IMG/VR virus record: IMGVR_UViG_3300022555_000004
DNA length: 64,000 bases
Source: a virus
Lineage: Duplodnaviria > Caudoviricetes
Reading direction: 5' to 3' (one strand)
Part shown: piece by piece, positions 9,916-45,559 of the stretch
How positions within the stretch are numbered: position 1 is the first letter of the stretch
How the letters are laid out: each line of letters opens with the position of its first letter
Notes under the pieces: model-generated
The model's input: only the letters and a program-made list of their open reading frames with translations
What the model was told of the DNA's origin: nothing
Database searches by the model: none
Position numbers and translations under genes: made by a program

Positions 9916-9925
9916 ATATTTTTCC

Positions 9926-11708: not shown

Positions 11709-12092
11709 TTATCCTTGAAGAACGAAACTTATAACATCATTATTACTGTTTGTTGATAAACGTATTGAATACATCATATTTATATCATATCTGAAATTAT
11801 CTTCATCAGCAATAACATCAATATTTTCAATATGTACTCTTGGATCCCAAAATTCTACTTCTTCTATCATCAATGTGCCGATTTTTTTTGCTGTTGATTC
11901 GTCAATAGGTTCAAATAATAATTGCTCTAAACTTGCTCCAAATTCTGGTAACATTCTTCTTTCCATTTTTCGTGTTTGTAAAATGTTTCTTATGGAATTT
12001 TTTATAGCATTGATATTAGAATTTTTATTCAAATCTTTAGTTTTTACGTTGGTTCCAAAATTTATGTCAATATCTGAATAAACGTCTGTCAT
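11709..12092 (-). CDS. gp25: Baseplate wedge subunit, gp25-like
   Basis: YSDIDINF...AIKNSIRNILQTRKMERRMLPEFGASLEQLLFEP...WDPRV. Confidence 0.92.
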   Translation of the reverse strand: MTDVYSDIDINFGTNVKTKDLNKNSNINAIKNSIRNILQTRKMERRMLPEFGASLEQLLFEPIDESTAKKIGTLMIEEVEFWDPRVHIENIDVIADEDNFRYDINMMYSIRLSTNSNNDVISFVLQG

Positions 12093-12102
12093 ATATACCT
12101 CC

Positions 12103-29896: not shown

Positions 29897-30682
29897 TCAG
29901 CCAACGATTATACCGAGGCCCTCATATACTTCCTCCAACCTAAGTGTTTCATCAAGATGTTCAATTTCTGATATACCTTCTTGTAGTAATGTATCGCCAT
30001 CCATTGATAATCCAACATTTGATCCAACAGCAGCGTAGTTGGCAAATTTACTTCTAACACGTCCTAAATTTATTTTTGTCAATGCTGTTACATAGTCTAT
30101 GAACCATATATTTTCATATAAGTCTTCATTGGTGCCTTCAATGCAGTATGTTCTAAGTAATAGATAGCCCGGTGTGTTAGCAACATATTGCCCGCCGCTT
30201 AGAACAGTTGTTACACCACTAGAAGGTGGCGGAGGTTGTATTTCCAATTGGTTTGTATATTTATGATATTTGAAATTATAGGCATCAACAACATATCGTT
30301 TTACCGTTTCTAAGAATCCTCTTGCTATATGGTATGATACAAGGGTATAGCTATCTCCGCCGCCTCGCATCAATATTTGATCATACATACCCATTTGATA
30401 TAGATAATTTTCAATTGTAAATAGGGTATGAATTGACCCCATTGTTTTGATATCATATCCAAGAACATCTGTTGTTCCTGATGGCATATCATATAATGTC
30501 TGGCCACCACGAAGTAATAATGTTATATATTTTTCTTGTGTTGCGTTGCCAACTGCCCATTTGATATATTTGCTTCTTGTATAGTCAATATTATCAAATA
30601 TTTGGGTATCATCAACCTCTATTTTTACCATTGGCGCGCCCAAACGTCTTTTAACCTTTTCGACCAATTCTTCTTTTATCAT
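29897..30682 (-). CDS. gp13: Neck protein gp13
   Basis: KRRLGAPMVKIEVDDTQI...DYVTALTKINLGRVRSKF...DGDTLLQEG. Confidence 0.9.
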   Translation of the reverse strand: MIKEELVEKVKRRLGAPMVKIEVDDTQIFDNIDYTRSKYIKWAVGNATQEKYITLLLRGGQTLYDMPSGTTDVLGYDIKTMGSIHTLFTIENYLYQMGMYDQILMRGGGDSYTLVSYHIARGFLETVKRYVVDAYNFKYHKYTNQLEIQPPPPSSGVTTVLSGGQYVANTPGYLLLRTYCIEGTNEDLYENIWFIDYVTALTKINLGRVRSKFANYAAVGSNVGLSMDGDTLLQEGISEIEHLDETLRLEEVYEGLGIIVG

Positions 30683-30725
30683 ATTTTTATAATCCTCGTT
30701 TCAATATTATATCTCTATTTATAAT

Positions 30726-33700
30726 TTATGAGATTAAAATATCATCCAACCACTTAAATGAATTATCTATGTTTGGGTCTTCAAGGTCAGCCATAACACC
30801 CCATATTTCTTCTTCATTATCTGATGTAAAACTTGATTTCAATTCGAGCGTTTCATCAAAAATATCCATCTGTGTTACGTATACTGCCCAATATAAGGCA
30901 CTTACTAAGTCGTCTTTCAAGTCTTTTCCGAAAAATTTACCATTTTGTTCAATAAAAGATGATAACTGTTCAACTGTTTCTTTGTCATTTATTATCAAAC
31001 ATTCATCTTCAATCAATTTTTTCATCAATAGAACTGCTTTTGGTTTAGTGTTCTTTGTTGCTCTAATGCCTAGGTTGGCTGCTTTGTTTCCTGTATTTAT
31101 TAGATTTTCTGTTTCGATGTCCCACCATAGTTTATTGACAACAGCGGCCCCTTCTGCATTGTTTTCAACCATTATAAAGGCACCATTATAATAAATGCTT
31201 ACCCTATTTATTATATCAGCAAATGAATATACATCGGTGAAGTCATCTTGATAAACGGCCACTTGTTCAAATATGATTGGTTTCATTGACACAAATTTTA
31301 ATACTTGAATAACGGAATCGTTTTCGCCTGTTCCCTTGGCAGTGTCACAGTTATGGGTTACTAAATTACGGCATAAGAATGTATGTGATTCTGTTTCAAA
31401 ATTATACACATCACCATTATATCGCGATTTTGTGATATTTTTTATTCGTATATAAATTTGTGTTTTATCATCATTGAAATAACAATATCTTTTATTTCTA
31501 TTTCTTATTATTTTTATTTTTGTTATATCAAAATCTTTATAATTGAGTTCATTTAGAAGATTTACACTATCATAATTATGTAATTTGAGTTGATATGTTT
31601 CTTTTATATTACAAGTTCTCCCGCAGACATTTCCTATTCCTTTTTTCCTCAATAGACCAATAGATGAAATATGGCCAAGAGAATATAATATATCTTGTAT
31701 ATCTTCCATAAGATAAAGTGAGGTACTAACTATGGACACACTACATTGCTTATTTCTATACAGCACACATCCGTCACTATCTATATATCCACGAATCAAT
31801 TCTAATTTGTATTCTGTGGGGATGTATTTTACCCATTCTGATATATATTTTTCATGTGAATATTGACCAAAAGTATCCTGTAAAAAATGATGTATTTGTT
31901 TGCTGTTGAATCGTGTTGAAATAGTGCTTGAATCGTCCCTTTTTCTTATACTTACACATCTATCATATTTTTCTATAATGTTTTTAATTTTTTCAGCAAA
32001 ATGATATTCTTTTTTAGCATCATGACATGTGTATATTCCGTAGCTATCATTTCTGCTCTGAATCCATCCATCCCCAAGCCATATACCAATAAACCACCAA
32101 AAATCTTTATCTGTCAGTGGATTATCTTTTATTTGAAAATCTGTTCGTGTTATAGTATTATATTTATCCCATTTCTTATCTAATTCATTATTAGATATTA
32201 TTTTGTTATACATATTTGGAAAACAAATCCAATCATTTATATTCACATCTTCCGTTTTTATATATTGAAAATTAAAATCTCTATATCTATTCATGCCGTG
32301 TGTAGGATGGTTTTTCATTCTCTTCATTTTTATTGGTTGATGTGATGCATATAGTGGATGCTCGCCGGTGAATTTTGTTTTTCTTACAGAACCGTATGTT
32401 TCTATATCATAAACATCTCCTTCAAAATCTTTGTATACTTGTATATTTTTTATTTTTGTTTCGTTACCATTATTATCATATAATATATCAGAAGGTGTTA
32501 TATCTATGATGTTTTTTAGGCCATTAACAGTAAGAACATTTTCATTTGGAGGTAAGCACCCAACAACATATTTTGCGTCTTTTAGTGGTTTTTCATAAAT
32601 TCTAAACTTATCATTCATTTCAGTAAGTATTGGTTCATTATACATAGAAAACAAATATTCCATTACATCCGGCGATATAACTGTATTTGTTGAACCGAGA
32701 AACTCTACAGCATATTCTTGAGCGAATTTTTTATTCCCTAGATTTTTTCTTTGATTTTCTGCCCATACAGCATCTCTGCCAGGCACGTCTTTCCACGTTG
32801 ATTTGAAATGTTTGAAATTATTTTCATTACGTTCAGCATTACTATATAGTGTGTGAAATGAATTGAACATACCATGTGGCGTTTGGTGCCCTATATAACC
32901 ATTATATATAACAGAATGACACCAATCATCATTATCTATGTTATCTAAAGAAAAATCATATACCTCATTTTGTGAGATACCAATACTCTTTATCCGTTCC
33001 CATTTTATATTTTTTGATACACAGTTTTCTAAAATATAGTTAAATTTTTCTTCTTTAGGTATTTTCTGTAATATATCCTTTATTCGCAACATCAATCGTC
33101 GTGATAAATGATTTACATCACGTTTTCTATTAATGGATGGCATGTATTTTTTGATTTCTTTTGTATATGGCGTTATATATGTATTTGCAAATGGTATTAT
33201 ATCAACCTTTTCTTGTTCACATATACCTAATTTACATTTATTATTTTGTTTTCTTGTAAACCTAAACCCTATTTCATCATAGAATGTCATTGACGATGTT
33301 CTATCTAGTTCTAGTTTATAATAATTAGAACTGACACGAACCCTTTTTGTTGGTTGAGTTACCCCCTCAAAATAATTAGACAAACACCCAATATTCAACA
33401 AAATCATTTTTATTTGTTCAATAAGTTTTTTTGATGATAGACTTATCCCTATTGTACCTCTATCCGAACGTGAATACCCATCCCCATCAAATATTCCTGA
33501 TATCATCGCACATGTATTTTCTTTTGACATACTCATAAGTTTTAAGGGAATTTCTTTGTTTTTAGCGTGAAGTTTTATATTAAACCCAATGTGTTGTAAT
33601 AAATTGGACAATGATGTATTACTAATATTATAATGCAAACCATCTTTATTCAAATAATAGTTTAAATTCAATTTATCCAATATATTACTAATATCATCAC

Positions 33701-35342
33701 CACATGTTATTGTGACACCATGTTCGTAAGCATTCCCCTCTGCTATATATAGGCCAAACAAATATGCTAAATCAGGGGTAATTGTGTCTACTGACATACA
33801 TTTGTTTTTTTGAAACTTCCTCACATATTTTTTATTATTATATGTTGTCTCATAGTCCTCTGATATAAAGTCTATTTTATCATCATTTCCCCATATATTC
33901 ATACCGTACTGTATTGATACAAAGTCGCCTTTGTCCAACTCGGATATTTTATACCATCCATATTTACCATCCTTACAGGCAAATAGTTTATGATTTAGAC
34001 TCCCCTCTATAGATGATGTAGTTGTTGTAATAATTTTTGTATCTACCTTCCCACTATTTACAATCAAAGAACCATTATTCATCTTAGTTTTCCCTAGTAT
34101 GGAATAATTATCAACAAAATATGGTACTTCTTTTTCAGTATTGATGAAATCATTTAGTTGCCGGATGCCTCTTTTAGTATAGATGTATGTTTTGCCTATT
34201 ACGCAACTCACTATTATGATTTTAGCATCGGTTGATGCGGAAATGGTAGGATAGTTGGCTGCCCAGAAGGCATCAGCAACAAATTTAGGTACGAAAGCGT
34301 ATTCATCCATACAATTTTTCGTGTGATGGCAACGATTTACGAGAAACATATTTTTTTCATTGTCTACATTTATGACATCAAACACATCGTCTGTTCTGTC
34401 ATATGTTATACCTGACACTGGGGTGGAACATCCATCAATTTTATCAACATCAGGTATCAGGTCACAGACTTTTTTCTTTTCGCCTTCAACATAGAATGTG
34501 TGATTGGTTGTTGCTGTGACAACATCTTCACCACTTTTTATGGTAAAAAGTTTATCCTGACCTTTTTTATTGATTCCCTTAAAGTTACACCAACCATACG
34601 GGGTCAATATCTCATATTTTGTATTTTCAACATAATCCATTATTTTCTTCAATTCATTATGTAATTCATCCAATGAAATTTCTTTTATTTCACCTGTTGT
34701 TTTATCTCTTACTGTTACTGTATTTTCACCGCCAAGACAAAGTAGATTCAAAGTTCTTCCACGGAAGGCATCTTCTGATGTAGCAGATACCATTATTCGC
34801 GTTCCGTTTTCAAATGTTATAAATGTTTTAGACCATTCTGTTATGCCTGGTTTCATCCATGTAGGCAATTCTTGATATACACGTTTGATACGGTTCATAA
34901 TATCAATAGCTGATACTTGTTTGTTAGATACGATGCCGATGGTTTTATCATCATTGAAGATGGCATACCACAAAACATAGGCTGATATTGTGGTTGTGTT
35001 GTGTGATACAATACCATTCGTGTAGTATAATGAATCATCAACATTAGACAGATCATACATGTTCTCAAATTCATCATGTATAATAATATTACTAATAAAT
35101 AATTCACCATTTTTACCATCAATTGACGATCCTATACAAAGGTCTTTAGCAAATATCTTATTATTACCAGACATAAAAATATGCATATCAGCACATTTTA
35201 TTGAATTGGTGTTAGTGAATTGTATTTCATATATTTGAAATGGTTTTGTTTTATATATACCATCAAAATCTTTCCATCCATCAGGTGTCAATACTTCATA
35301 ATCATCAATATCAACATTGTCAATAAATTTATCATCTATCAT
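30726..35342 (-). CDS. gp17: Terminase large subunit gp17, C-terminal gene (IntC plus C-extein with three more inteins)
   Basis: True start MIDDKF at 35342 (GGAGG RBS). Exteins include TTTISAY (Walker A), FRGRTLNLL/CMDEYAFV (Walker B), IIIVS/TPHG, G/CDTAKGTG and DDLVSAL. Confidence 0.92.
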   Translation of the reverse strand: MIDDKFIDNVDIDDYEVLTPDGWKDFDGIYKTKPFQIYEIQFTNTNSIKCADMHIFMSGNNKIFAKDLCIGSSIDGKNGELFISNIIIHDEFENMYDLSNVDDSLYYTNGIVSHNTTTISAYVLWYAIFNDDKTIGIVSNKQVSAIDIMNRIKRVYQELPTWMKPGITEWSKTFITFENGTRIMVSATSEDAFRGRTLNLLCLGGENTVTVRDKTTGEIKEISLDELHNELKKIMDYVENTKYEILTPYGWCNFKGINKKGQDKLFTIKSGEDVVTATTNHTFYVEGEKKKVCDLIPDVDKIDGCSTPVSGITYDRTDDVFDVINVDNEKNMFLVNRCHHTKNCMDEYAFVPKFVADAFWAANYPTISASTDAKIIIVSCVIGKTYIYTKRGIRQLNDFINTEKEVPYFVDNYSILGKTKMNNGSLIVNSGKVDTKIITTTTSSIEGSLNHKLFACKDGKYGWYKISELDKGDFVSIQYGMNIWGNDDKIDFISEDYETTYNNKKYVRKFQKNKCMSVDTITPDLAYLFGLYIAEGNAYEHGVTITCGDDISNILDKLNLNYYLNKDGLHYNISNTSLSNLLQHIGFNIKLHAKNKEIPLKLMSMSKENTCAMISGIFDGDGYSRSDRGTIGISLSSKKLIEQIKMILLNIGCLSNYFEGVTQPTKRVRVSSNYYKLELDRTSSMTFYDEIGFRFTRKQNNKCKLGICEQEKVDIIPFANTYITPYTKEIKKYMPSINRKRDVNHLSRRLMLRIKDILQKIPKEEKFNYILENCVSKNIKWERIKSIGISQNEVYDFSLDNIDNDDWCHSVIYNGYIGHQTPHGMFNSFHTLYSNAERNENNFKHFKSTWKDVPGRDAVWAENQRKNLGNKKFAQEYAVEFLGSTNTVISPDVMEYLFSMYNEPILTEMNDKFRIYEKPLKDAKYVVGCLPPNENVLTVNGLKNIIDITPSDILYDNNGNETKIKNIQVYKDFEGDVYDIETYGSVRKTKFTGEHPLYASHQPIKMKRMKNHPTHGMNRYRDFNFQYIKTEDVNINDWICFPNMYNKIISNNELDKKWDKYNTITRTDFQIKDNPLTDKDFWWFIGIWLGDGWIQSRNDSYGIYTCHDAKKEYHFAEKIKNIIEKYDRCVSIRKRDDSSTISTRFNSKQIHHFLQDTFGQYSHEKYISEWVKYIPTEYKLELIRGYIDSDGCVLYRNKQCSVSIVSTSLYLMEDIQDILYSLGHISSIGLLRKKGIGNVCGRTCNIKETYQLKLHNYDSVNLLNELNYKDFDITKIKIIRNRNKRYCYFNDDKTQIYIRIKNITKSRYNGDVYNFETESHTFLCRNLVTHNCDTAKGTGENDSVIQVLKFVSMKPIIFEQVAVYQDDFTDVYSFADIINRVSIYYNGAFIMVENNAEGAAVVNKLWWDIETENLINTGNKAANLGIRATKNTKPKAVLLMKKLIEDECLIINDKETVEQLSSFIEQNGKFFGKDLKDDLVSALYWAVYVTQMDIFDETLELKSSFTSDNEEEIWGVMADLEDPNIDNSFKWLDDILIS
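31350..32558 (-). mobile_element. TerL intein 4 (403 aa, LAGLIDADG) in the nuclease domain
   Basis: CLPPNENVLT...NLVTHN|C; FIGIWLGDG and IRGYIDSDG motifs. Confidence 0.9.
32883..34205 (-). mobile_element. TerL intein 3 (441 aa, LAGLIDADG), ending in Gln
   Basis: CVIGKTYI...YNGYIGHQ|T; FGLYIAEG and ISGIFDGDG motifs. Confidence 0.9.
34314..34739 (-). mobile_element. TerL mini-intein 2 (142 aa) at Walker B
   Basis: CLGGENTV...ATTNH...HTKN|CMDE. Confidence 0.85.
34998..35342 (-). mobile_element. C-terminal half (IntC, 115 aa) of an atypically split intein
   Basis: Has block B (CADMH) and block F/G (MYDL...TNGIVSHN|T) but no N-terminal Cys block. Confidence 0.88.
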
Positions 35343-35385
35343 ACGCAAAAAAATACCTCCATTTTCTATGAAGGTATTTATACTA
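35343..35385 (-). promoter_or_regulatory. Late promoter plus RBS-occluding hairpin, copy 2
   Basis: TATAAATACCTTCATAGAAAATGGAGGTATTTTTTTGCGTATG. Confidence 0.75.
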
Positions 35386-35404
35386 TAAGAATGTAAAGTG
35401 TAAA

Positions 35405-36502
35405 TCAATTGTGGATAAAAGACAAACATTTGTTAATTATACTTTTCGGATCTTTATTAAAATCTCTTTCCGTAACATGTAAAACTTTTATACCTGTAGC
35501 TTCGATTAATTTTGTTCTATTTTCATCTCGTTCTTTATTTCCTCTTTTTTCACCGTGCCAATAATCGCCATCAAATTCAATACACTTATTAATATCTTTA
35601 ATAAAAAAATCCAATTTACAATATGTTTGCCCAATATCTAATTTATATTCAAAATTTCTATTTTCTTCTATTTGTTGGATGTTTTGATTTAATTGAGCAA
35701 AATAAATTTGCTTATATTTATTTTTAGTTTTTTCATATAGATTCCAAAACAAAATTTGTGATATAGAGGAAAAATTTTGTTTTGGGAAATTAGACATCCA
35801 TTTATCTTGCCTTTCTTTCCATCTAATGCTACCGCCAACTTCGCCATACTTTTCAATACATTTTTCAAGTGAGAATGTAGTTTGACGTTTTGATATTTTT
35901 TCAATAGCTTCTTCTTCTGTAACACCTCTTTTAATCCAATATTCTATTTGTGTTGGCAATCTTCCTGATCCATCAGTTAATTTATCTGATAAATTAATAT
36001 ACATTGAATTAATTTTATTATTCTTTTCACTTTCTGTTAAATCCACATAACCAACAAATTTTTTACTATAAGGCGAAAGTTTGCCACCATGTTGATAAGC
36101 TGGATTCTTATCACCGCTTATTTTTTGCGACATTTTTTCTAATTCAACAATAGAATATATATCATTTGTAGTTGTGTTATGTTTTTCATGATATTCATTT
36201 ATTGACATTTTATGATAATCTCTAATGTGAGGCCCTAATATTGCACCATAAAATCCACATTCTTTACATATTACATAGTCATTAGATGATCTGTTTTTAA
36301 ATTTTTCCCTTGATTTTTGTATTCTTGTGTGTTCTTCACAACAACATTTAGATCCCCGTCTTTTTATTGGTTCGTTACAAATTAAACATTTTCCGTACAG
36401 ATTATATTTTAATTTATATTGTAAATTGGATAAACAGTGCTTATTCCTTACATGTTGAAATACATCATTACATTCATAACCGCATTCAAGACATTTTTCC
36501 AT
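35405..36502 (-). CDS. Free-standing Vsr/DUF559-like endonuclease separating the two terL halves
   Basis: N-terminal Cys/His zinc-finger-like repeats and C-terminal LDFFIKDINKCIEFDGDYWHG. Likely start MEKCLEC at 36502. Confidence 0.75.
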   Translation of the reverse strand: MEKCLECGYECNDVFQHVRNKHCLSNLQYKLKYNLYGKCLICNEPIKRRGSKCCCEEHTRIQKSREKFKNRSSNDYVICKECGFYGAILGPHIRDYHKMSINEYHEKHNTTTNDIYSIVELEKMSQKISGDKNPAYQHGGKLSPYSKKFVGYVDLTESEKNNKINSMYINLSDKLTDGSGRLPTQIEYWIKRGVTEEEAIEKISKRQTTFSLEKCIEKYGEVGGSIRWKERQDKWMSNFPKQNFSSISQILFWNLYEKTKNKYKQIYFAQLNQNIQQIEENRNFEYKLDIGQTYCKLDFFIKDINKCIEFDGDYWHGEKRGNKERDENRTKLIEATGIKVLHVTERDFNKDPKSIINKCLSFIHN

Positions 36503-36571
36503 AAAATTACCTTTCCATGTCAATTTTATTTATATAATATATTTATAACAAAACGACAAAAAGGTAAAGGT

Positions 36572-36913
36572 TTATTTTTTATTTTTATCAAATAATTTAC
36601 CTATAGGAATATCCATAATATCCCCCGTTTTTTTGTTACGCACCGAAACTACAGTAGAATATGATAAACATTTACCACTCTGTCGTGACGCTAGAATAAC
36701 ATTGAATCTGTTGTCTTGAAGATTTCTAAGGATTTGTTTTTGAAAATCATAAGGTTCAAATACAACAATACCTCTATCTGGATGTATGATTTTTATATAT
36801 GGTAGAAAATTCCAAATATCTGTATAACATTTGTGTAATTCTAACAACATTTCCGGTGTATATTCAATTTCTTTATTTGGTTTTTTTAGAAAATCCGTAT
36901 ATTTAATACCCAT
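36572..36913 (-). CDS. gp17: Terminase large subunit gp17, N-terminal gene (81-aa extein plus 32-aa IntN)
   Basis: IIHPDRGIVVFEPYDFQ...NVILASRQSGK|CLSYSTVVSVRNKKTG...KNKK*. Start MGIKY at 36913. Confidence 0.92.
   Translation of the reverse strand: MGIKYTDFLKKPNKEIEYTPEMLLELHKCYTDIWNFLPYIKIIHPDRGIVVFEPYDFQKQILRNLQDNRFNVILASRQSGKCLSYSTVVSVRNKKTGDIMDIPIGKLFDKNKK
36575..36670 (-). mobile_element. N-terminal half (IntN, 32 aa) of the split intein
   Basis: Block A CLSYSTVV follows Walker A GK directly; the ORF stops 32 aa later. Confidence 0.88.
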
Positions 36914-36959
36914 AACGCAAAAAAATACCTCCATAATTTCTTATGAAGGTATTTATACG
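36914..36959 (-). promoter_or_regulatory. Late promoter plus RBS-occluding hairpin, copy 1
   Basis: TATAAATACCTTCATAAGAAATTATGGAGGTATTTTTTTGCGTTATG. Confidence 0.75.
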
Positions 36960-36985
36960 GTATTGTGTTGAAATGTAAAATATTG

Positions 36986-37283
36986 TTATTTATTATATTC
37001 TTTATCTTGTGCTTTTTCTAAGGCGTCTTGACTATCATAAGCACCAAGTATTTGTTCTTTTGACTTTGGGTCAGCACCAACATATAGGGCACGTCCATTG
37101 TTATTAGCTTTTATTATCATATCAGCTATTGTTTCAGGGTTTTGTTCATCTTTATATGATTTTTTCAAAAGTCGTATTAGGTCATTTTTCTTATTATATC
37201 TGACGTTTTCCTTCATCATAATAAAAATTTACTTTACGGAAAATTCCAGTATATTCATCAATTCGTTCTAATAGACTTTTCAT
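36986..37283 (-). CDS. Small hypothetical protein, possibly one gene with a frameshift at 37223-37227
   Basis: ATG 37283 has a GGGGG RBS and TATAAATA but stops after 29 aa. The +1 frame ORF 36986..37219 has no obvious RBS. Confidence 0.45.
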
Positions 37284-37321
37284 ATTTCCCCCATAATAAT
37301 TATTATCATTATTTATAATAA

Positions 37322-38806
37322 TTATTTTTTTTCTGAAACACGCGCCATGACTTCTTTATCCCCTAGATGCGTTCTCAAAAAAACATCACGACCCCATAGA
37401 AATGTAATATGTTTCAACGTTTCTTCTGTGTATTGTCGGTCTAAAGGAGCACCAGTAAATACGTGATTCAAAAGCAAATGGCCGGCACCATTGTTGAAAT
37501 TACCATCAACAACTTCAATTTTTGGTATGCCATTATTTGAAAACGAATTGATGATAATTTTTCTTACTTCATCGGCGGTATGTTCACTTCTAATATATTC
37601 GATTGAACCATCTAGATATTTATGTTCAATATAAATGAACAAATCCAATTCTTCAATGATATCAGTAGTCAAAAAGTCTTGAAAGAACATCCAATCTGTA
37701 TATGTTGGCATTACATCTTTGATCTTTTCAACGCCCTTCATTTCTTTTGTATCCCAATTATCCTTCAATTGAAAATTTTGACATTCGGCCCATTCAGACC
37801 CATGTTGCCCTCTATCCCATCGTTTTTCTATTGTAGACCAAATATGTGATCCAATAAGATATGGGTTCATTGACATCCTACTTTGTGCTTTTACAAGAGC
37901 ATTAGAATAGTTGTATTGTCCATGTTCTTCCGGTGTCAAATCGCCTTCATGAAACAATGTGTCTAATACTTTTTGATGGATGTGACAAGCAAATCCTTCA
38001 TTCATAAATTTAGTTCGTATGATAGGCCAATAATACTGACCTTCATATCTAATGACTTCGAGAATGTCTTTTTGCCAGTCTTCAAGAACAGAAGAATTAT
38101 CAATGATGTATCGTAACAAATCTTCTGTTGGCTCAACAGGCGACATCATTTTCACCATCCTTGATAATGAACGATTATAATTTTCAACATCGTTTTTTTC
38201 GTTAGGATTGCCTAAGATAACATCAGCAAATTCGGATATTCTAGGTCTATGAGATTCTTTCATTTGATTATAAACTCTTATACGTTTTTCGTCTTCCGTT
38301 TCTGTATTGAACGGTGAACTGTGCATTTGAATTGAATGGCCGGCATCAATTGTTCTTTCAACATAATCAAGACCATATAATTTTTCATATTCATTTACCC
38401 TATGGTTGGCTTCGGCCAACATTGTTCCCATATCAATTCGTGCTTTTTCAAACATTTTATTTTCTTTGAAAAATACACTATGGCCTACAACGTGTGCCAT
38501 AACTAGAACTTGAACAGCAAATGTGTTAGAGTTCATTAGATATGCTCTACACGGATCGCCAAAGATAACACATTCGTAAGGAAGGTGATTACTCAAATTT
38601 TCAAAAATGGTTCTTTGCCTTTCGTAGTCCCTGCCGAATTTCCAATTGCTGATTTGCGTGGGCCCTCTATATGCCAATATTTCCCACATTTTTTGTTCAG
38701 GTATAACATCCCACTCAATAGGGATAAAAGAATATCCCATATCAGTTACAAGTCTGTTTATCTTATCTTCTAATTTAATCAATCGTTTTAGATCATTTTT
38801 TTCCAT
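37322..38806 (-). CDS. spoVR: SpoVR/YcgB family protein
   Basis: WKFGRDYE, YECV..DPCRAYLMNSN, LVMAHVVGHSVFFKEN, RTKFMNEGFA, NPYLIG. Confidence 0.93.
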   Translation of the reverse strand: MEKNDLKRLIKLEDKINRLVTDMGYSFIPIEWDVIPEQKMWEILAYRGPTQISNWKFGRDYERQRTIFENLSNHLPYECVIFGDPCRAYLMNSNTFAVQVLVMAHVVGHSVFFKENKMFEKARIDMGTMLAEANHRVNEYEKLYGLDYVERTIDAGHSIQMHSSPFNTETEDEKRIRVYNQMKESHRPRISEFADVILGNPNEKNDVENYNRSLSRMVKMMSPVEPTEDLLRYIIDNSSVLEDWQKDILEVIRYEGQYYWPIIRTKFMNEGFACHIHQKVLDTLFHEGDLTPEEHGQYNYSNALVKAQSRMSMNPYLIGSHIWSTIEKRWDRGQHGSEWAECQNFQLKDNWDTKEMKGVEKIKDVMPTYTDWMFFQDFLTTDIIEELDLFIYIEHKYLDGSIEYIRSEHTADEVRKIIINSFSNNGIPKIEVVDGNFNNGAGHLLLNHVFTGAPLDRQYTEETLKHITFLWGRDVFLRTHLGDKEVMARVSEKK

Positions 38807-38807
38807 T

Positions 38808-38999
38808 TTACCAATTCTCCACGTCAGTTAAATCAAGTATTTCACCACATTTACATTTATATTGCACAACATCACCTAGTCCTGTTGGCATAAACATGTA
38901 CCATTCGCCGCCACCAATTGCTCCTGTATACTTCTTTTTACATTTTGGATGGAATGCTTTCACTTTTTCCATCTGTTCTGGTGTTATCTCAAATTTCAT
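38808..38999 (-). CDS. Small hypothetical protein
   Basis: 63 aa; YMFMPTGLGDVVQYKCKCGEILDLTDVENW; tight spacing on both sides. Confidence 0.65.
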   Translation of the reverse strand: MKFEITPEQMEKVKAFHPKCKKKYTGAIGGGEWYMFMPTGLGDVVQYKCKCGEILDLTDVENW

Positions 39000-39009
39000 A
39001 CTATTTCCT

Positions 39010-40314
39010 TTATTTTTGTTGGAACAACATGTGGCGTAAGGCCGGATATATATAAGTCCGGTCTTTTATTTCACATGCTAATATATGTTTAGTGTCATTT
39101 TTGAAAAATGTCTTACCATCAATGGTAGAGGCCATCATATCAAAGTTTTTTCTAAATTCTTTCAATAAATTGCCGGAATTATATTCCCCTGTTGGTTTTA
39201 TTTCAAGATATCCTAACATATTCAATCCGTTGTCTATCATGGTTTTTGCTGATGCCATGGTTTTTGAAGTATAAAAATCTTCACCATCCGATACATACAT
39301 ACAGTAACGATTCCATTGTTCTTCGGGAAACTCTGTTTCTAATGTATAATTGGCCAAATCAAATGCTGTATGACAGAATGTTCCGCCCCATTCACCTTTT
39401 TTGAAAAACGAATCTTCATCTACAAGTCTTGCTTCTGTTGTATGAACAATGAAACGTATTTGAACATTTTCATATGCTTTCTTTAAAAATTCAACCATCC
39501 AGAACAAGAAAGACCTACTTAGATATTTTTTATCTGGTGTCATAGAACCTGAAATGTCCATCATGGCTATAATAACGGCATTACTTGTGGGTTCAAATTT
39601 TTCAGATATTTTCTTATATCTCATATCATCGTCTTCAATGTATAGAAGTGTTGGGTCTATATTGTCATCAACCGTATTCGCTTTGACTAATTCTATTGCT
39701 AATTCTAAATCACCGGCTGCCTGAACAAGAGCCTTTTCAGCAATAATCATTTCACATTTTGTTTCTTCCATTATCTCGGCGATATATGCTGCTGTTCGTT
39801 TCAATGCTTCTGTTACTGTTTTCTTCTTATGTAATCTTGGCTGAATACCAATTTTAGAAATTCCTTCAAACTTCCATCCTGCCGGCACCAATGTTTCTAT
39901 CTTAGTTTTTTCTTCAAGATATGGTAGGCCAAGGTCTTCAAACATGATTTTGATAAGATAATCAATATCAACTTCAACTTCCATGTATTCATCACCACGT
40001 TCATTACCAGCCTGTTGGCCTTGTGACCCATCATCGCCCGGTCTTCTGGCAATAACATCACCCGGCTTTCCTTTGCCTTGACCAACACCACCACGTTGAG
40101 CATCATCGTTGATACCATGTCGGAATTGAAAATCTTTCAATCCCTTGATCGGAATTCTTATTTTTTTAGATCCTTTTTTAGTAATAATGGATTCTTCGCC
40201 TATAATATTTTTTACATTTTTTCTAATCTGGTCGTCCACTTTTTCACGATGCCTTTGTGCATCCTTTCTTCCACGTTCATTTAGTTCCCATCCATCATGT
40301 GCTACAATTGACAT
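39010..40314 (-). CDS. yeaH: YeaH/YhbH (DUF444, vWA-like) protein
   Basis: DAQRHREKV, IRIPIKGL..FRHG, GQGKGKPGDVI, AMMDISGSM, FIVHTTEA, GGTFC, YVSDGED. Confidence 0.93.
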   Translation of the reverse strand: MSIVAHDGWELNERGRKDAQRHREKVDDQIRKNVKNIIGEESIITKKGSKKIRIPIKGLKDFQFRHGINDDAQRGGVGQGKGKPGDVIARRPGDDGSQGQQAGNERGDEYMEVEVDIDYLIKIMFEDLGLPYLEEKTKIETLVPAGWKFEGISKIGIQPRLHKKKTVTEALKRTAAYIAEIMEETKCEMIIAEKALVQAAGDLELAIELVKANTVDDNIDPTLLYIEDDDMRYKKISEKFEPTSNAVIIAMMDISGSMTPDKKYLSRSFLFWMVEFLKKAYENVQIRFIVHTTEARLVDEDSFFKKGEWGGTFCHTAFDLANYTLETEFPEEQWNRYCMYVSDGEDFYTSKTMASAKTMIDNGLNMLGYLEIKPTGEYNSGNLLKEFRKNFDMMASTIDGKTFFKNDTKHILACEIKDRTYIYPALRHMLFQQK

Positions 40315-40329
40315 TATTTTTCTCCAATT

Positions 40330-40527
40330 TTAATTTGATCGTCCTGATGTTCCAAAGCCATATGGGCACCGCCCTTTAACGCCTTTACATGAATCCCATA
40401 CTATAGATTCATAATATGGATCTATTTTCCCATTTGACCCATTTTCTTCTTGTGGTCTGCCTGCACAACCAGACGTGCCTGATCGTCCGCCACATTTCCA
40501 ATCTTCGTTTATTATATCATCAAACAT
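40330..40527 (-). CDS. Small Cys-containing hypothetical protein
   Basis: Likely start MFDDIINED at 40527, coupled TAATG with the upstream ORF. Confidence 0.55.
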   Translation of the reverse strand: MFDDIINEDWKCGGRSGTSGCAGRPQEENGSNGKIDPYYESIVWDSCKGVKGRCPYGFGTSGRSN

Positions 40528-40712
40528 TATTCTTTCTCTCCTGTTTGACTTGGATGTGTGCCAGCGCCCAAACTGCATACACAATGATAACATTTTATCA
40601 CTTCTTTCAGTGAATAGTGTTCAATATTATCAGAATATACACAACGCCATCCTAACATTTTAGGATTTTTAACTTTGTATATATTTTCTTCAATAATTAA
40701 ATCATCAAACAT
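40527..40712 (-). CDS. Small Cys-containing hypothetical protein
   Basis: MFDDLIIEE..., GAGGT RBS, downstream of a sigma70 promoter. Confidence 0.55.
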   Translation of the reverse strand: MFDDLIIEENIYKVKNPKMLGWRCVYSDNIEHYSLKEVIKCYHCVCSLGAGTHPSQTGEKE

Positions 40713-40732
40713 TTTTTACCTCAATATTATTT

Positions 40733-40760
40733 ATTATACACTTTTTTATGATTTTGTCAA
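40733..40760 (-). promoter_or_regulatory. Sigma70 promoter for the yeaH-spoVR unit
   Basis: TTGACA-16 nt-TATAAT. Confidence 0.7.
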
Positions 40761-40764
40761 TAAT

Positions 40765-40804
40765 AAAAATATCCCTGATTGAAAGGAGTAACAATCGGGG
40801 ATAT
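40765..40804 (-). terminator. Terminator after the HNH gene
   Basis: ATATCCCTGATTG / CAATCGGGGATAT inverted repeat with a T-run on the minus strand. Confidence 0.75.
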
Positions 40805-40822
40805 CCGGCACAACAAGGAATG

Positions 40823-41437
40823 TTATGCCTGTGTGAGGGTCTTTAAACCATCAATATATATTATAAATTTTTCTTCATATTCTTGTTCTTTATGATTTAC
40901 TTTACTTTGATGGCATTTCTTGCATAATGTTATTCCATTATTTTCGTCAAATCTTATGTCTGGATATAATGAAAAACGTTTTATATGATGGGGTTCTAAT
41001 TTATTACCATGTTGACCACATAAAGCACATGTATAATTATCCCGCTCAAAAACTTTCGCTCTCCATTTTTTCCAATCATCAGTTCTATAATAAAAATGAC
41101 TACCTTCGTTTCTTTTTCCGCCGCCTCGCCAATTTGGATTTAAATTTCCAGGCTTGCCTGGATTGTTTAATTTCATCCAGTTTGATGATCCTAGATTTGG
41201 AACACCATAACATGGGTGATTTTTACCCGTTGGGTATATACGGCCGTTATTTACATTTTCATAACTAGCTTTACATGATTTACAACAAAATTCACCTTTA
41301 CTACACGGTTGTTTCAAGAACATATCACCACATTGTTTACAAGGGCCGGCTTCAATATATTTTTTTCCTAGTTTGTTTCTATATACACCGTTTTTTGTCA
41401 AATGATATTCATTCAAATCTACGTCAATTGACTTCAT
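40823..41437 (-). CDS. HNH endonuclease
   Basis: CALCGQHGNKLEPHHIKRF...ENNGITLCKKCH; NPNWRGG; start MKSIDV at 41437. Confidence 0.88.
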   Translation of the reverse strand: MKSIDVDLNEYHLTKNGVYRNKLGKKYIEAGPCKQCGDMFLKQPCSKGEFCCKSCKASYENVNNGRIYPTGKNHPCYGVPNLGSSNWMKLNNPGKPGNLNPNWRGGGKRNEGSHFYYRTDDWKKWRAKVFERDNYTCALCGQHGNKLEPHHIKRFSLYPDIRFDENNGITLCKKCHQSKVNHKEQEYEEKFIIYIDGLKTLTQA

Positions 41438-41518
41438 TATAAATACCTCCAAATTGATATCTAATGGTATTTATATAACGTTCGGTTTTTGTAAACAATG
41501 TGGTAAAAAACATTGCCA

Positions 41519-43501
41519 TTATTCACTTCTTCGTAAAAGTTCTGCGACAAAACCCAAAACCATAGTCGCGCAAATTTCACAATAACCATGTTCCTTCATT
41601 TTGTTGATAGCGCTTTTTCTACGCTTTTTAGACTTATCATCAGTTGTCGATTTATCAGCAATGGTCAAAGAAACAATGTTTTTCAAATCGCTCATAAGTT
41701 TCTTTTCAATGGCCGTTTTCAAAGGATCGTAATCCTTGAAAGTGAACGGCAACCCACGTTCCAGACGAGAAGATTTGTAAACAAAAATTCCTTGTCTAAA
41801 TTCGTTTTTAGAATTTACTGGAACACTGATAAATTCTTCAATCTGCCTCATTAACTTTTCATCTGGTTCACTGTATTCGCCAGTGATAGAATCAAAGACT
41901 TTTTCTTTTCTGCAAAAAGATGAAGCATTGATGATGTAATTTTCAAACAATGACTGCGCTTGTTCCTCATATGCTGTAAGGAAGGCCATGTTTACTTCTT
42001 TTCTTGCCATTTGTTTGTATTCATAACTGATCGAATCCTTTTCACCAATCAACATTGTAACATATTTTTCTTTGTCTTCTGGTGTAATACCAACATGATG
42101 TTCAAAGTTTGTTTTCAAAACTCTGATGATATCAATAGGATTGATACATTTTTTATCTTCTTTCATACCAAGAGCGATGTTCAAGGCATTGATAATAAAT
42201 CTTGGAGAAATGCCTTCCATACCTTCGCCCTTTATTTTACCTTCTTCTCTAAGAGCTTTCAGGTCAATTTCTTGCTTTTTCATTTCTTCTGTAATTTCAC
42301 CATTATAGATTTTCATTTTTTCTACAAGGTTAGAAACTCTTGTGCTAGGCACTAAACGAGAAAGAACAGCAAACTGAGCGGCAACTTTCAATGTGCCCGG
42401 TGCAATGTGAATACCATGAAAATCTGATTCACGAATCATTTTTTCATAAATCTTTACTTCATCATCCACCCTCAAATTCCAAGGAACAACAACCGAATAC
42501 ATACGATCACACAATGCTTCATTCTTTTTATCCGACTTGAATGAATCATATTCCGTGAAGTTTGTATGACCAAGGATTAATGTATCAATATACATCTGTG
42601 GGAATCCGGGCGATTTGATCAATTGTTCTTGTGCTGCCGTAATGAGAATATTATGAAGTTTCGTACTGCATTTCAACAATTCGATATATTCAATCATACC
42701 ACCATTGGCTACTTGTAATTCACCATTGAATTGAAACGCCCGTGGGTCTGTTTCCCCATATCGTGTGATTTTACTCATATTTACACGACCAATCAATTCA
42801 GATACATCCTGATTCATAGGATCAGATGGAACAAAGGTTCCGATACCTGTTCTGGTTTGTTCAGAAAACTGAACTTGCTTTACAGGTACTTCTTCCCATT
42901 TGATATGACCATCTTCTGCCATAAATTTTTCTTTTACCATTTGTTGACATACTGGGCATAGGTCGCCTTCAATATTGACATTTAGTTTTTTCTCCCATTC
43001 TTCTCTATTAGCAAGAGGAATAAGATGTAATGGTTCCTCATTGATAGGGCATCCATCAATAACAAATTTACCAATGGGATCTCTTTCAAGACCACGTTTG
43101 ATTAATGCTGAAATTGTGCTTTTGCCTGAACTTACGGGCCCTACCATAAGTAATACACGTTTACCTGTTTCTGTTCTACGAGCAGATGCTTTCAAAAACT
43201 TCATAAGGTCATGAATAGATTCTAATGAACCATAAATTTTTTCATCGAAAAATTTATACTTTACTAGGTCTTCATAACCACGCGTTTTGAGAGATTCATC
43301 TACTTGGTCTACACCGTAAGACATAATCATGTTGTAGATTCTGCCCGGTGCAAACGTTGCTATATCAGGATTTTCCTGCACTTTATACAGGTATTCTAAC
43401 ATAGAGCCTGTCCATTTAGCAACAGGTGTTTTTTCCCTTTGATTAATAATTAATTCTCTGAAATCAGCCATTTCCATCATATTCTCCTTTGTCCCCCACA
43501 T
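41519..43501 (-). CDS. prkA: PrkA/YeaG family AAA+ ATPase (serine kinase family)
   Basis: LLMVGPVSSGKST, GCPINEEPL, GELQVANGGMIEYIELLK, GHTN..EY, EALCDR, EGMEGISPRF, YCEICA. Confidence 0.95.
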   Translation of the reverse strand: MWGTKENMMEMADFRELIINQREKTPVAKWTGSMLEYLYKVQENPDIATFAPGRIYNMIMSYGVDQVDESLKTRGYEDLVKYKFFDEKIYGSLESIHDLMKFLKASARRTETGKRVLLMVGPVSSGKSTISALIKRGLERDPIGKFVIDGCPINEEPLHLIPLANREEWEKKLNVNIEGDLCPVCQQMVKEKFMAEDGHIKWEEVPVKQVQFSEQTRTGIGTFVPSDPMNQDVSELIGRVNMSKITRYGETDPRAFQFNGELQVANGGMIEYIELLKCSTKLHNILITAAQEQLIKSPGFPQMYIDTLILGHTNFTEYDSFKSDKKNEALCDRMYSVVVPWNLRVDDEVKIYEKMIRESDFHGIHIAPGTLKVAAQFAVLSRLVPSTRVSNLVEKMKIYNGEITEEMKKQEIDLKALREEGKIKGEGMEGISPRFIINALNIALGMKEDKKCINPIDIIRVLKTNFEHHVGITPEDKEKYVTMLIGEKDSISYEYKQMARKEVNMAFLTAYEEQAQSLFENYIINASSFCRKEKVFDSITGEYSEPDEKLMRQIEEFISVPVNSKNEFRQGIFVYKSSRLERGLPFTFKDYDPLKTAIEKKLMSDLKNIVSLTIADKSTTDDKSKKRRKSAINKMKEHGYCEICATMVLGFVAELLRRSE

Positions 43502-44005: not shown

Positions 44006-45559
44006 TTATACATATTTAGATTGTGTTTGTAAATGTTTAATAAATTTCATATTACCACAATCCCAAATTCTATCATAACCTTGTTCTTGCATTATATCCC
44101 ATTCAGTCATGCCTTCCCTTGTGGCCAAGTGTTTTATCCTGTCTTTACGAAAATTGAAACGATGCCATCTTTTTGTGTTATCCTTGAAATACCAATAATT
44201 AGGATTTGTTGTTCCTACAAGTTCAAACCCAATTTGTTTGTATACGTCACCTTCACTCCATCTCAAATCAGCGTAAGAGTATATTTCAGTCCATGTGTAG
44301 TTTTGTTCAAAATATTTCAATAGTTTGCCGGCTATACCAACAACAGAACATGATGTACAAAACCTGCTAAGTTCCCAAACATTTATTTTATGTGAGGCGC
44401 CTTTTGATATGTTACCTTTAGCGAAGGTCATAACAGATACTAATTCGTTATTATAGTAAGCCCCTAATTTTATTGCACATTGGGTATATCCTTGTATATG
44501 ATGTTTATCAATAAATTCCTTTGCCATTTTAGGTGTTATTTCTACGATAACACATTTTCTAGCATATACAGCTTTTTCATGCGTAAGTATATGTTTTAGT
44601 CTATCTATCACAATTTCTTTTCGTGTCACCCATTCATCTTCAAATAAAGTAATGAGTCTATACCCGGCTTCATTGCACATTTTCAACTTATTGAGATGAT
44701 AATTTTTATCTTTTTTGCCTTTTTTTGTTCCATGATAATATAATCCATCGTACTCTATAGCTATATTTTTTGAAGGGATAACAATGTCTAATTCCAGTGG
44801 TTTTATTATGCCCCTATTTTTTAATTGAATATCTATACCCAAATTTGTAATAAATTCAGCTATTTCCTTTTCGGCTTTTGACATGCCATCATTACAACAC
44901 GGGCACCTGTGCCCTAGTTGCCAGTTTGACCATGATATTGAATGTTTAGTACCTTTTGGACATACATAATTAAGTTTTTGGTTATTGTTGCTATATTCTT
45001 CTTCATTGGTCAACAGTTGATAATTATCAGTTAAAAATGCTGTATATATCATATTGAAATCGGCTTTTCTACAATTTGGGCATCTGTGACCATTGACCCA
45101 TCTTGTATAATTGGTAGTATAATTATGACCTTGTGGACATTTGACAGATATTGTAGAACCATACTTCATGTAATCATCATAAGATGTGGTCAATGTAAAA
45201 TTTTCATTTATCAGTAATTTTACTATTGTTGCATATGATGTTTTATTTGTCACTCGTCTTGTTCCATTAGACCATTCTTGTTTTCTAGCCAATGATACTT
45301 TTTGTACGATATTTTCTCTGTACTCATCATCTAACCATCTTTCTTTTGTAGCCACAGACTGTTTTTTCTTTACATCCGGTCTGCTGGCTGTATGTTTATT
45401 CCGACATTTTCTACAAAATTTACCATTATTTTGTTTTAAATATGTTCTATATGGTTGTTCTACTTGTATACCACAAATATCACAATCAAATAATATTTTT
45501 TTATGTGATCCTTCTGATAATTCCCTAAATTGTGTACCATCAACATTTCTTAAATTCAT
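44006..45559 (-). CDS. Putative homing endonuclease: zinc-ribbon repeats, Vsr/DUF559-like domain, extra C-terminal domain
   Basis: CPQGH..RCPNC and CPKG..RCPCC repeats; LDIVIPSKNIAIEYDGLYYH; RLITLFEDEW; WELSRFC...SYADLRWSEG.VY..IGF. Confidence 0.65.
   Translation of the reverse strand: MNLRNVDGTQFRELSEGSHKKILFDCDICGIQVEQPYRTYLKQNNGKFCRKCRNKHTASRPDVKKKQSVATKERWLDDEYRENIVQKVSLARKQEWSNGTRRVTNKTSYATIVKLLINENFTLTTSYDDYMKYGSTISVKCPQGHNYTTNYTRWVNGHRCPNCRKADFNMIYTAFLTDNYQLLTNEEEYSNNNQKLNYVCPKGTKHSISWSNWQLGHRCPCCNDGMSKAEKEIAEFITNLGIDIQLKNRGIIKPLELDIVIPSKNIAIEYDGLYYHGTKKGKKDKNYHLNKLKMCNEAGYRLITLFEDEWVTRKEIVIDRLKHILTHEKAVYARKCVIVEITPKMAKEFIDKHHIQGYTQCAIKLGAYYNNELVSVMTFAKGNISKGASHKINVWELSRFCTSCSVVGIAGKLLKYFEQNYTWTEIYSYADLRWSEGDVYKQIGFELVGTTNPNYWYFKDNTKRWHRFNFRKDRIKHLATREGMTEWDIMQEQGYDRIWDCGNMKFIKHLQTQSKYV

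Follow-up and report, generated by a model that had tools for sequence, protein, structure and literature searches.

Probable fracture of a phage terminase gene at the Walker A loop by a naturally split intein that flanks a homing endonuclease gene, in an uncultured T4-like phage of fresh water

Phage terminase large subunits (TerL) host naturally and atypically split inteins, namely AceL-TerL, GOS-TerL and the consensus Cat-TerL (Thiel 2014, Bachmann and Mootz 2015 and Stevens 2018, via PMC11766414; PDB 6DSL). Within this family IntN measures 25-37 aa and IntC 104-115 aa, and AceL is tabulated as a Cys1/Cys+1 and GOS as a Ser1/Cys+1 intein (PMC11766414). The +1 residue is Cys or Ser in the characterised natural short-IntN split inteins AceL-TerL, GOS-TerL and PolB16 OarG. 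Fractured genes, in which a free-standing endonuclease gene lies between a gene for N-extein and IntN and a gene for IntC and C-extein, were described by Dassa 2009 (NAR, PMC2677866), and a gp17-like terminase fractured locus from Lake Gatun was already listed there. The intein of mycobacteriophage TerL1-a occupies a 'classic' P-loop site, GK/T, where the slash marks the junction (Kelley 2016, PMC5050341).

The locus studied here lies in a 64-kb window (the whole stretch of DNA analysed, 64,000 nucleotides) of an uncultured freshwater T4-like phage, and all of its terL features are on the minus strand (Table 1). We put the probability at about 0.88 that a naturally split class 1 intein fractures this terL gene at the Walker A loop and that its halves, which flank a free-standing homing endonuclease gene, act by trans-splicing in the manner proposed below. 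The preliminary description of the sequence had placed the end of the N-gene at RQSGK/C with a 32-aa tail and a stop, an endonuclease gene after it, and a C-gene opening with a 115-aa IntC that ends SHN/TTT; these boundaries proved exact to the base, and the span 34998-36913 given for the whole runs from the end of IntC to the start of the N-gene. The N-extein matched the PHROG terminase large subunit family (E 1.5e-15) and aligned with gp17 of Aeromonas phage 65, the second extein segment matched Pfam Terminase_6N, and the tblastn matches of the last segment were terminase large subunits of T4-like phages. The start residue of the C-gene is common to its relatives. Once spliced, the exteins comprise 518 aa that align over their full length with Aeromonas phage 65 gp17 (35% identity), and in this alignment all four interruptions of terL fall exactly at conserved motifs. 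The joined sequence SRQSGKTTT lies opposite LSRQLGKTTAT of that protein, which agrees with the earlier proposal that joining the exteins would rebuild the Walker A motif (SRQSGKTT).

Table 1. Coordinates of the terL locus in the window
Feature	Position	Strand	Description
Leader cassette of terL N-gene	36914..36957	-	TATAAATA (36950-36957), hairpin, GGAGG, spacer to ATG
terL N-gene (P0001)	36572-36913	-	113 aa; ends ...ILASRQSGK, then 32-aa tail from Cys, TAA stop
terL N-extein	36671..36913	-	aa 1-81; ends SRQSGK, first half of Walker A
IntN	36572..36670	-	32 aa from Cys1 (36575-36670) and TAA stop
Endonuclease leader	36503..36575	-	hairpin; region just past N-gene stop pairs with endonuclease RBS (GGAAAGG)
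Free-standing homing endonuclease gene	35405..36502	-	365 aa from ATG, intact ORF
Second terL leader cassette copy	35343..35382	-	TATAAATA, hairpin, GGAGG, spacer; directly before C-gene
terL C-gene	30726-35342	-	ATG at 35342, 11 nt behind GGAGG
IntC	34998..35342	-	115 aa; first part of C-gene, ends ...GIVSHN, then TTTISAYVLWYA
Extein segment 2	34740..34997	-	86 aa, Thr+1 (TTTISAYVLWYA) to Walker B ...TLNLL
Intein 2	34314..34739	-	contiguous 142-aa mini-intein in Walker B, LNLL/C...HTKN/CMDEYAF
Other extein segments	34206-34313, 32559-32882	-	
Intein 3	32883..34205	-	441 aa, LAGLIDADG endonuclease domain, in C-motif, IIIVS/C...GHQ/TPHG
Intein 4	31350..32558	-	403 aa, LAGLIDADG domain, start of nuclease domain, YVVG/C...VTHN/CDTAKGTG
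Last extein segment	30726..31349	-	207 aa, nuclease domain and stop codon

Cys1 of IntN (Cys82 of the N-gene) follows directly on SRQSGK and is invariant in 12 homologous N-genes (alignment A1). IntC carries the block B His54, the block F Asp97 and the terminal His114-Asn115, and is approximately 40% identical to CatC, the AceL/GOS-TerL consensus (PDB 6DSL_B; E 9.8e-16, residues 4-114 aligned). Together with 1148 representative proteins that match at E<=1e-3, this match puts the split-intein assignment far beyond chance. In alignment A3, which takes in two paralogous inteins at Cys+1 sites and eight Walker A members, there is no variation at the block B His, at the block F Asp or at the penultimate His and almost none at the terminal Asn, and Thr+1 is present in all eight Walker A members. 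The residues characteristic of a class 1 intein (HINT domain) were found at Cys1, in blocks B and F, at the His-Asn end and at Thr+1; the Thr of the block B motif TxxH is replaced by Ala (ADMH). In the model of the IntN and IntC complex, IntN was placed on IntC with a score of 0.81 (best control, 0.00), which denotes likeness and not proof, as a like complex (6DSL) has been solved and may be reflected in the score. Of 78 solved complexes, 51 came up to the mark applied, as did two of 108 mismatched pairs; the runs had at least 78% of contacts in common, with a partner pLDDT of at least 71. Residue conservation and the complex model lend indirect support to splicing of the two halves.

The intein is similar to the AceL/GOS/Cat family in its gp17-type TerL host protein, its homologous HINT domain, its ...LYYTNGIVSH ending, its class 1 catalytic residues and its atypical split after the first beta-hairpin, here into 32 and 115 aa. 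In contrast to that family, its site is Walker A, GK/TTT, with Cys1/Thr+1. The crystallised flanks of Cat (EFE/.../CE) fit a third terL site, QEY/CEFLGS (Cys+1), and not Walker A, and AceL and GOS probably occupy QEY/CEFLGS as well; this site is uninterrupted in the window (AQEYAVEFLGST) and atypically split in the related locus L004 and in Vibrio phage Va1. Judged from the sequences, the window intein is a paralogous allele within the AceL/GOS/Cat family and not an orthologue. The earlier suggestion of a further natural AceL/GOS-type member with Thr+1 holds as regards homology, the split and the +1 residue, but not as regards the insertion site or rarity: IntC stands at the protein start, followed by a Ser/Thr Walker A extein, in 104 of the 149 closest 50%-identity clusters, and the Walker A split form is common in metagenomes. 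Insertion between the invariant P-loop Lys and Thr is shared with the inteins of TerL1-a and of the TerL of the Kuttervirus (Ackermannviridae) moki. A contiguous intein is found at the same Walker A site in P0018 and in cultured Kuttervirus phages (e.g., Salmonella phage moki TerL), and that of moki is homologous (42% identity over IntC and extein; ARQSGK/CVKGDT...FLSHN/TTVVAAF). The Kuttervirus and TerL1-a inteins are single polypeptides without an internal endonuclease gene, whereas the window copy is divided between two genes.

The gene between the halves, for which a TTG is present at 36523 besides the ATG, is annotated in PHROG as 'homing endonuclease'. Its product consists of one or more N-terminal Ros/MucR-type zinc fingers (Pfam ROS_MUCR, 34.9 bits; Ros structure PDB 2JSP, E 0.007) and, at the C-terminus, a putative nuclease of the Vsr-like/DUF559 type in which the motif LDFFI...IEFDGDYWH...D is found. 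The Pfam matches of the nuclease domain are weak (DUF559, 22.2 bits at a cut-off of 20.6; MTES_1575, 30.2 bits, below the cut-off of 38.2), and a search against solved structures gave no direct sequence match of this part to a solved nuclease. Five endonucleases (alignment A2) all share D298, E309, H316 and D326, and the orthologues at the same fracture in loci L002, L004 and L008 are 38-57% identical. The protein resembles Vsr-like (DUF559-type) homing endonucleases in its D...E-x-D-G-x-Y-W-H...D pattern, its DUF559/MTES_1575 similarity and the position of its gene, which lies within a mobile intervening sequence that interrupts a DNA-metabolism gene of a phage. It differs from them in having a Ros-type zinc finger as its N-terminal DNA-binding part. 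In a phage and on a single strand, two enzyme halves that carry split-intein halves enclose a free-standing endonuclease gene, which is the exact arrangement of the fractured genes of Dassa 2009 (PMC2677866); the locus also shares with them an apparently Vsr-like endonuclease and a hairpin in the endonuclease 5' leader. The fractured-gene reading given earlier holds. Unlike those loci, the window copy has the Walker A position, the Ros/MucR-type zinc finger, a duplicated promoter/RBS cassette at the C-half and three cis-inteins in the gene.

Each terL half-gene has a TATAAATA/hairpin/GGAGG leader copy of its own. TATAAATA is a T4-type late promoter motif, and the 3' arm of the N-gene hairpin covers the Shine-Dalgarno GGAGG. 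The leader of the N-gene folds at -18.8 kcal/mol (z -5.0) and that of the C-gene at -13.8 kcal/mol (z -4.6). The two cassettes are near-identical and share a 16-mer and an 18-mer of which the 64 kb contains no further exact copy; L002 and L004 have no second cassette, and in them the endonuclease stop and the C-gene start overlap each other. The endonuclease-leader hairpin (-16 kcal/mol, z -3.0, equalled by one of 200 shuffles) holds two TATAAATA motifs in its loop (36527-36534 and 36540-36547). The motif is moderately enriched in the AT-rich window, with 26 copies versus 16.5 expected, 23 of them on the coding strand. It is on this motif evidence that the T4 scheme of late promoters and hairpins is applied here, and the leader duplication is apparently an adjustment of gene expression by which the phage lives with the fracture.

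The endonuclease region might instead be a group I or group II intron with its own ORF, removed at the RNA level to leave a contiguous intein or TerL without trans-splicing. [quoted passage not shown] However, no Rfam family was matched at E<=1 on either strand of 30500-37300, the N-gene stop is backed by a second in-frame stop beyond it, and the C-gene has a frame different from that of the N-gene and its own promoter motif, Shine-Dalgarno sequence and ATG. In the relatives, the ORFs stay separate even where a 64-nt spacer or an unrelated gene lies between them, and the boundaries here coincide with the HINT-fold split point of solved atypically split inteins. We consider the RNA intron, which the preliminary description had named as the outcome that would overturn its reading, to be without support and very unlikely.

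The preliminary description identified the split intein, but it left out the duplicated leader and three further inteins in the C-gene, all of them cis. Intein 2 is unsplit and paralogous to the split intein, and its first 32 aa are 41% identical to IntN. Its equivalent is split at the same point in L002, by an endonuclease gene of its own, and in L004, by a 64-nt cassette; at ~90% DNA identity, this stop/promoter/RBS cassette is the sole difference between intein 2 of the window and the split version in L004. Intein 3 ends in Gln, not Asn, and matches Pfam LAGLIDADG_3 (44 bits); its GHQ/TP junction also occurs in L004, and the intein is absent from L002 and L006. Intein 4 matches LAGLIDADG_3 (53.4 bits) and Intein_splicing (36.4 bits).

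A mis-joining of the endonuclease gene into a terL with a contiguous intein during assembly would suit a metagenomic source in which related phages with differing intein content share samples, as seen from many partly matching contigs. This explanation has a negligible probability, since identical contigs from a second lake-water study (four runs) tile the stretch without error and in the same layout. They bridge both sides: one runs through IntC and the spacer into the 3' part of the endonuclease gene (34070-35763), and another from the 5' part of that gene through IntN and the N-gene (36128-36952). The gene order of the window is also repeated at three other loci from unrelated samples, and the N-gene/endonuclease/C-gene order occurs with orthologous endonucleases in L002 and L004. 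In L006, the split is kept with no recognisable endonuclease between the halves, which argues that splicing is independent of the endonuclease.

The fracture could also be a dead end, with splicing lost and terL reduced either to the pseudogene of a defective phage or to a two-piece enzyme held together non-covalently by the intein halves. As a nucleophile, Thr+1 is weaker than the Cys+1 of characterised relatives, and together with the absent block B Thr it could slow splicing. A non-covalently assembled phage ribonucleotide reductase, fractured by a mobile element, is known (PMC3045599). On the other hand, all catalytic residues persist in relatives whose identity has fallen to 25-70% (A1, A3), the architecture is kept in more than 100 clusters, and so many intact copies indicate selection. 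ATP is unlikely to be bound by a P-loop whose GK and T stand ~147 intein residues apart. Complete modules for head, neck and tail are encoded in the window, and the sequence recurs in the lake samples of the second study. Loss of splicing is accordingly improbable.

In the trans-splicing mechanism that we favour, late transcripts starting inside the hairpin would free the ribosome-binding site and be translated into both halves. The predicted N-gene product consists of the N-extein (81 aa) and IntN (32 aa), and that of the second gene of IntC (115 aa) and a C-extein into which three cis-splicing inteins are set. IntN, short and probably disordered, would dock on the nearly complete IntC and finish the HINT fold, whereupon thioester formation at Cys1, attack by Thr+1 and cyclisation of Asn115 would create the peptide bond ...SRQSGK-TTT.... 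With the three cis-splicing events added to trans-splicing, the result would be a TerL of 518 aa whose P-loop is intact. The endonuclease, with its Ros-type zinc finger and putative Vsr-like nuclease, probably cuts terL alleles that do not have its gene, with the gene and the split being copied into co-infecting relatives; it would be the selfish cause of the fracture, dispensable for splicing.

Taken jointly, these observations may mean that one mini-intein family occupies at least four terL sites in this clade of freshwater T4-like phages and switches freely between contiguous, split with endonuclease and split without, always at a fixed point ~31 residues in. In that case, expression cassettes and endonuclease genes would dock at an 'atypical' split site that is prone to recombination, and the duplicated leader would be a further adaptation, making the C-half independent of endonuclease expression. 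We hold this reading tentatively, at slightly less than even odds; if true, it would provide engineering with natural inteins in matched split and unsplit forms, as well as with a short-IntN intein of the Cys1/Thr+1 type. Split inteins with a short IntN are in demand for the semisynthetic labelling of proteins, and the window intein adds a Thr+1 junction in another sequence context, GK/TTT, within a family that offers more than 100 diverged natural variants and contiguous counterparts for comparison. The locus is a new member of a known family and does not overturn current understanding. For the phage, it would mean that the Walker A, Walker B, C-motif and nuclease site of an essential packaging ATPase come into being only after one trans- and three cis-splicing reactions.

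All genes of the window lie on the minus strand, and terL is distributed over an N-gene (N-extein plus IntN) and a C-gene (IntC plus C-extein) that flank an endonuclease ORF. The first 81 residues of the N-gene resemble families of the large terminase subunit (PHROG 5989, E 1.5e-15) and end in ILASRQSGK, whereas residues 1-115 of the C-gene close with GIVSHN and are followed by TTTISAYVLWYA. Spacers of 69 nt and 62 nt separate the endonuclease ORF, analysed as protein P0002 from a TTG at 36523, from the N-gene and the C-gene, respectively. For the C-gene, the ATG at 35342 is preferred to the upstream ATG at 35429, because GGAGG lies 11 nt ahead of it and the genes of the relatives begin at the same residue.

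Features of the fractured terL locus, of further window regions and of related loci (slash, insertion point; L numbers, loci of relatives)
Feature	Coordinates	Strand	Description
N-gene (P0001)	36572-36913	-	113 aa; residues 1-81 extein, last 32 from Cys to TAA stop
Endonuclease ORF	35405-36502	-	365 aa, intact; ATG behind GGAAAGG
C-gene (P0003)	30726-35342	-	1538-aa ORF
Split intein		-	SRQSGK/TTT, Walker A
C-gene cis-inteins (2, 3 and 4)	within 30726-34997	-	
Intein 2		-	142-aa mini-intein; LNLL/CMDEYAF, Walker B
Intein 3		-	441-aa LAGLIDADG; IIIVS/TPHG, C-motif
Intein 4		-	403-aa LAGLIDADG; YVVG/CDTAKG, start of nuclease domain
Intein 3 C-terminus	32883-32888	-	His-Gln, GYIGHQ/TPHG
Intein 2 around residue ~31	34590-34700	-	compared with L004:10070-10245
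SpoVR and DUF444 (YeaH-like) genes	37322-43501	-	directly upstream of terL
517-aa ORF	44006-45559	-	
Nuclease motif copy in 517-aa ORF	44600-44794	-	weak, Vsr-like
L002, part 1			N-gene; orthologous endonuclease, 57% identity
L002, part 2			232-aa gene: IntC1, extein and 31-aa IntN of intein 2
L002, part 3			second, different Vsr-like endonuclease gene (294 aa), then rest of terL
L004	8001-14003		terL in four genes: atypically split inteins at Walker A, Walker B and QEY/CDFLGS; one cis LAGLIDADG intein
L004, gaps			Vsr-like endonuclease gene in one; GIY-YIG/NUMOD3 endonuclease gene in that at the third site
L006	8343-9169		Walker A split kept; 167-aa ORF in the endonuclease's place between the halves; rest of terL without inteins
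L008 (distant relative)	8001-12987		N-gene with 34-aa IntN; orthologous endonuclease
L010 (Salmonella phage moki, NC_049506.1)	2006-4216		TerL mini-intein at Walker A, ARQSGK/CVKGDT...FLSHN/TTVV
L011 (Vibrio phage Va1, MK387337.2; cultured)	1649-5066		terL fractured at third site; N-gene closes with ~30-aa IntN

Once the 32-aa IntN tail, the 115-aa IntC head and the three inserts of the C-gene had been deleted from the protein sequence, 518 aa of joined exteins remained; these aligned over their whole length with gp17 of Aeromonas phage 65 (35% identity, 499 columns) and are those of a single TerL. The Walker A motif that trans-splicing was expected to rebuild, SRQSGK/TTT, would be restored on joining and corresponds to LSRQLGKTTAT of gp17. 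The ORF reading and this alignment showed the coordinates and lengths of the preliminary description (IntN 32 aa, IntC 115 aa, Thr at +1) to be exact, and its proposal of a fractured gene is borne out by a locus with all the structural features of the Dassa type (PMC2677866). With the split intein and three cis-inteins, maturation of TerL therefore requires four splicing reactions, each in a different catalytic motif. The last two residues of intein 3 are His-Gln where His-Asn is usual; a C-terminal Gln is rare among inteins, and this one is no sequencing error, since L004 keeps the same junction. Read mapping from four runs also yielded a joint 32705->34240 (shorter side of 26 letters, 85% likeness) that lies off the intein borders and probably stems from relatives without intein 3.

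An assembly error as the origin of the layout is excluded: in four runs of a second lake-water study, tiled contigs free of errors cover the stretch, and both junctions are spanned. Removal of the endonuclease region as an RNA intron is highly improbable: a search of 30500-37300 with the Rfam families, among them those of group I and II introns, gave no match at E<=1, IntN is followed by two in-frame stops, and the C-gene uses a different frame.

Residues 4-114 of IntC, with the closing LYYTNGIVSH, matched the 'Consensus engineered intein CatC' of PDB 6DSL (chain B; E 9.8e-16); Cat represents the consensus of the AceL-TerL and GOS-TerL inteins (PMC11766414). Cys1 was unchanged across 12 aligned N-genes. 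In the IntC alignment, which included two paralogous inteins at Cys+1 sites, His54 of block B, Asp97 of block F and His114 were invariant and Asn115 nearly so. The locus also has every structural property of a class 1 intein. When N-gene residues 62-113 were modelled in complex with C-gene residues 1-135, the score was 0.81, whereas the best of three controls scored 0.00; the mark used for this score was reached in 51 of 78 solved complexes, compared with 2 of 108 mismatched pairs. At least 78% of contacts were common to the runs, with a partner pLDDT of at least 71 and contacts at IntN residues 79-95 and 104-112. Because a like complex, 6DSL, is already solved, the model shows likeness to a working split intein rather than binding by the window copy. 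A phmmer search of PDB with IntN and seven flanking residues, a query too short for this program, returned chance hits only; only the third-site IntN of L004 weakly matched CatN (E 0.12), and intein 2 had no PDB match. Taken as a whole, the fractured locus is in our assessment real, well supported and likely functional (probability of about 0.88).

The 44 nt ahead of the N-gene ATG recur ahead of the C-gene ATG with four single-base indels (TATAAATACCTTCATA..GGAGGTATTTTTTTGCGT), and a 16-mer and an 18-mer of this leader occur exactly only at these two places in the 64 kb. Both copies fold as a hairpin (z -5.0 for the N-gene and -4.6 for the C-gene; no shuffle was as stable) in which the promoter-proximal arm pairs with the Shine-Dalgarno sequence. 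The motif TATAAATA, the T4 late-promoter consensus, was observed 26 times in the window versus 16.5 expected, 23 of these copies being on the coding strand. In the endonuclease leader the hairpin is longer (z -3.0), with two such motifs in its loop and the ribosome-binding site in its 3' arm. If these leaders behave like those of T4 late genes and I-TevI, the ribosome-binding site would be exposed only on transcripts begun at TATAAATA promoters. The leader copy is absent from L002 and L004, in which the endonuclease stop and the C-gene ATG overlap; this marks the duplication as specific to the lineage of the window, where it plausibly equalises late expression of both terL halves.

Eleven N-gene homologues of nearly equal length were recovered from metagenomes, and conservation among homologues and relatives makes decay of the split terL unlikely. 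For the 167-aa ORF of L006, Pfam found no family, and its reading as a macro domain was dropped on that ground. The terL halves of L008 may be far apart, because the 3 kb after its endonuclease, up to the contig end, hold a resolvase gene and no C-gene. Intein 2 is contiguous and paralogous to the split intein: residues 1-32 share 41% identity with IntN (E 4e-8), and residues 32-128 match positions 5-104 of IntC (E 3e-8). The DNA around intein 2 residue ~31 is ~90% identical between the window and L004, apart from a clean 64-nt indel that comprises a stop codon, TATA-rich sequence, GGAG and ATG; in L002 the same point is occupied by the 294-aa Vsr-like endonuclease gene. Given this clean indel, the split point appears to be a fixed, reusable position that is empty or holds a small expression cassette or an endonuclease gene. 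The genes directly upstream of terL represent cargo unusual for a T4-like phage (SpoVR, DUF444 and PrkA, the last judged from synteny with L002), which is conserved in the relatives L002 and L003.

Pfam assigned a Ros/MucR zinc finger (34.9 bits) to the window endonuclease; in its C-terminal part, DUF559 scored 22.2 bits, above the cut-off of 20.6, and MTES_1575 scored 30.2 bits, short of its own cut-off. The Ros zinc finger was its sole PDB match, with no solved nuclease among the hits. The motif copy in the 517-aa ORF is 29% identical to the last 65 aa of the endonuclease (E 4e-5); this ORF may encode a further free-standing endonuclease.

With HMMER, IntC was compared with all of 1.84 billion cluster representatives, of which 1148 matched at E<=1e-3 and 354 at E<=1e-10. 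Among the best 149 of the 1148, which were re-aligned, 104 open directly with IntC and continue with Ser/Thr and an extein of the Walker A type (TTT..., STT...), as in the window; in 30 more the intein is internal at the Walker A site, many being contiguous (e.g., the homologous protein P0018, GK/CVSGNTLVTIRNKKTG...). The other sites of the family are Walker B (/C..DE), a position just behind Walker B (/CAFI) and the third site (/CEFLGSS). The crystallised Cat chains are flanked by EFE/ and /CE, and AceL-TerL and GOS-TerL have Cys at +1 (PMC11766414); from this we infer that AceL, GOS and Cat are inserted at the third site (in the window, AQEYAVEFLGST) and not at Walker A. The window intein would then be a paralogous allele of a family known from elsewhere in terL: the suggested kinship with AceL-TerL and GOS-TerL holds as homology, but their site and Cys+1 are not shared.

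GK/T is the 'classic' P-loop intein site of mycobacteriophage TerL1-a (PMC5050341). Cultured phages of the genus Kuttervirus, Salmonella phage moki among them, have a contiguous homologue at exactly GK/T, whereas the window copy is split. The moki intein is absent from the annotation (terminase only), and the same match occurs in hundreds of Ackermannviridae records. Vibrio phage Va1 differs in having its atypically split intein at the third site rather than at Walker A; its next ORF, annotated as 'putative terminase', can be read as endonuclease, IntC and C-extein in a single frame. Region 30000-38000 had no megablast match among 50,697 phage records, the phage itself being outside that collection. 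A full-text literature search with three intein peptide strings returned no paper, a result that does not establish the pair as uncatalogued.

The locus is thus of a known kind, abundant in metagenomes and conceptually not new. Its practical value lies in a Cys1/Thr+1 intein with a short IntN, of which nature offers numerous variants as well as unsplit counterparts, and its illustrative value in one essential gene with four inteins in four catalytic motifs and a duplicated leader.
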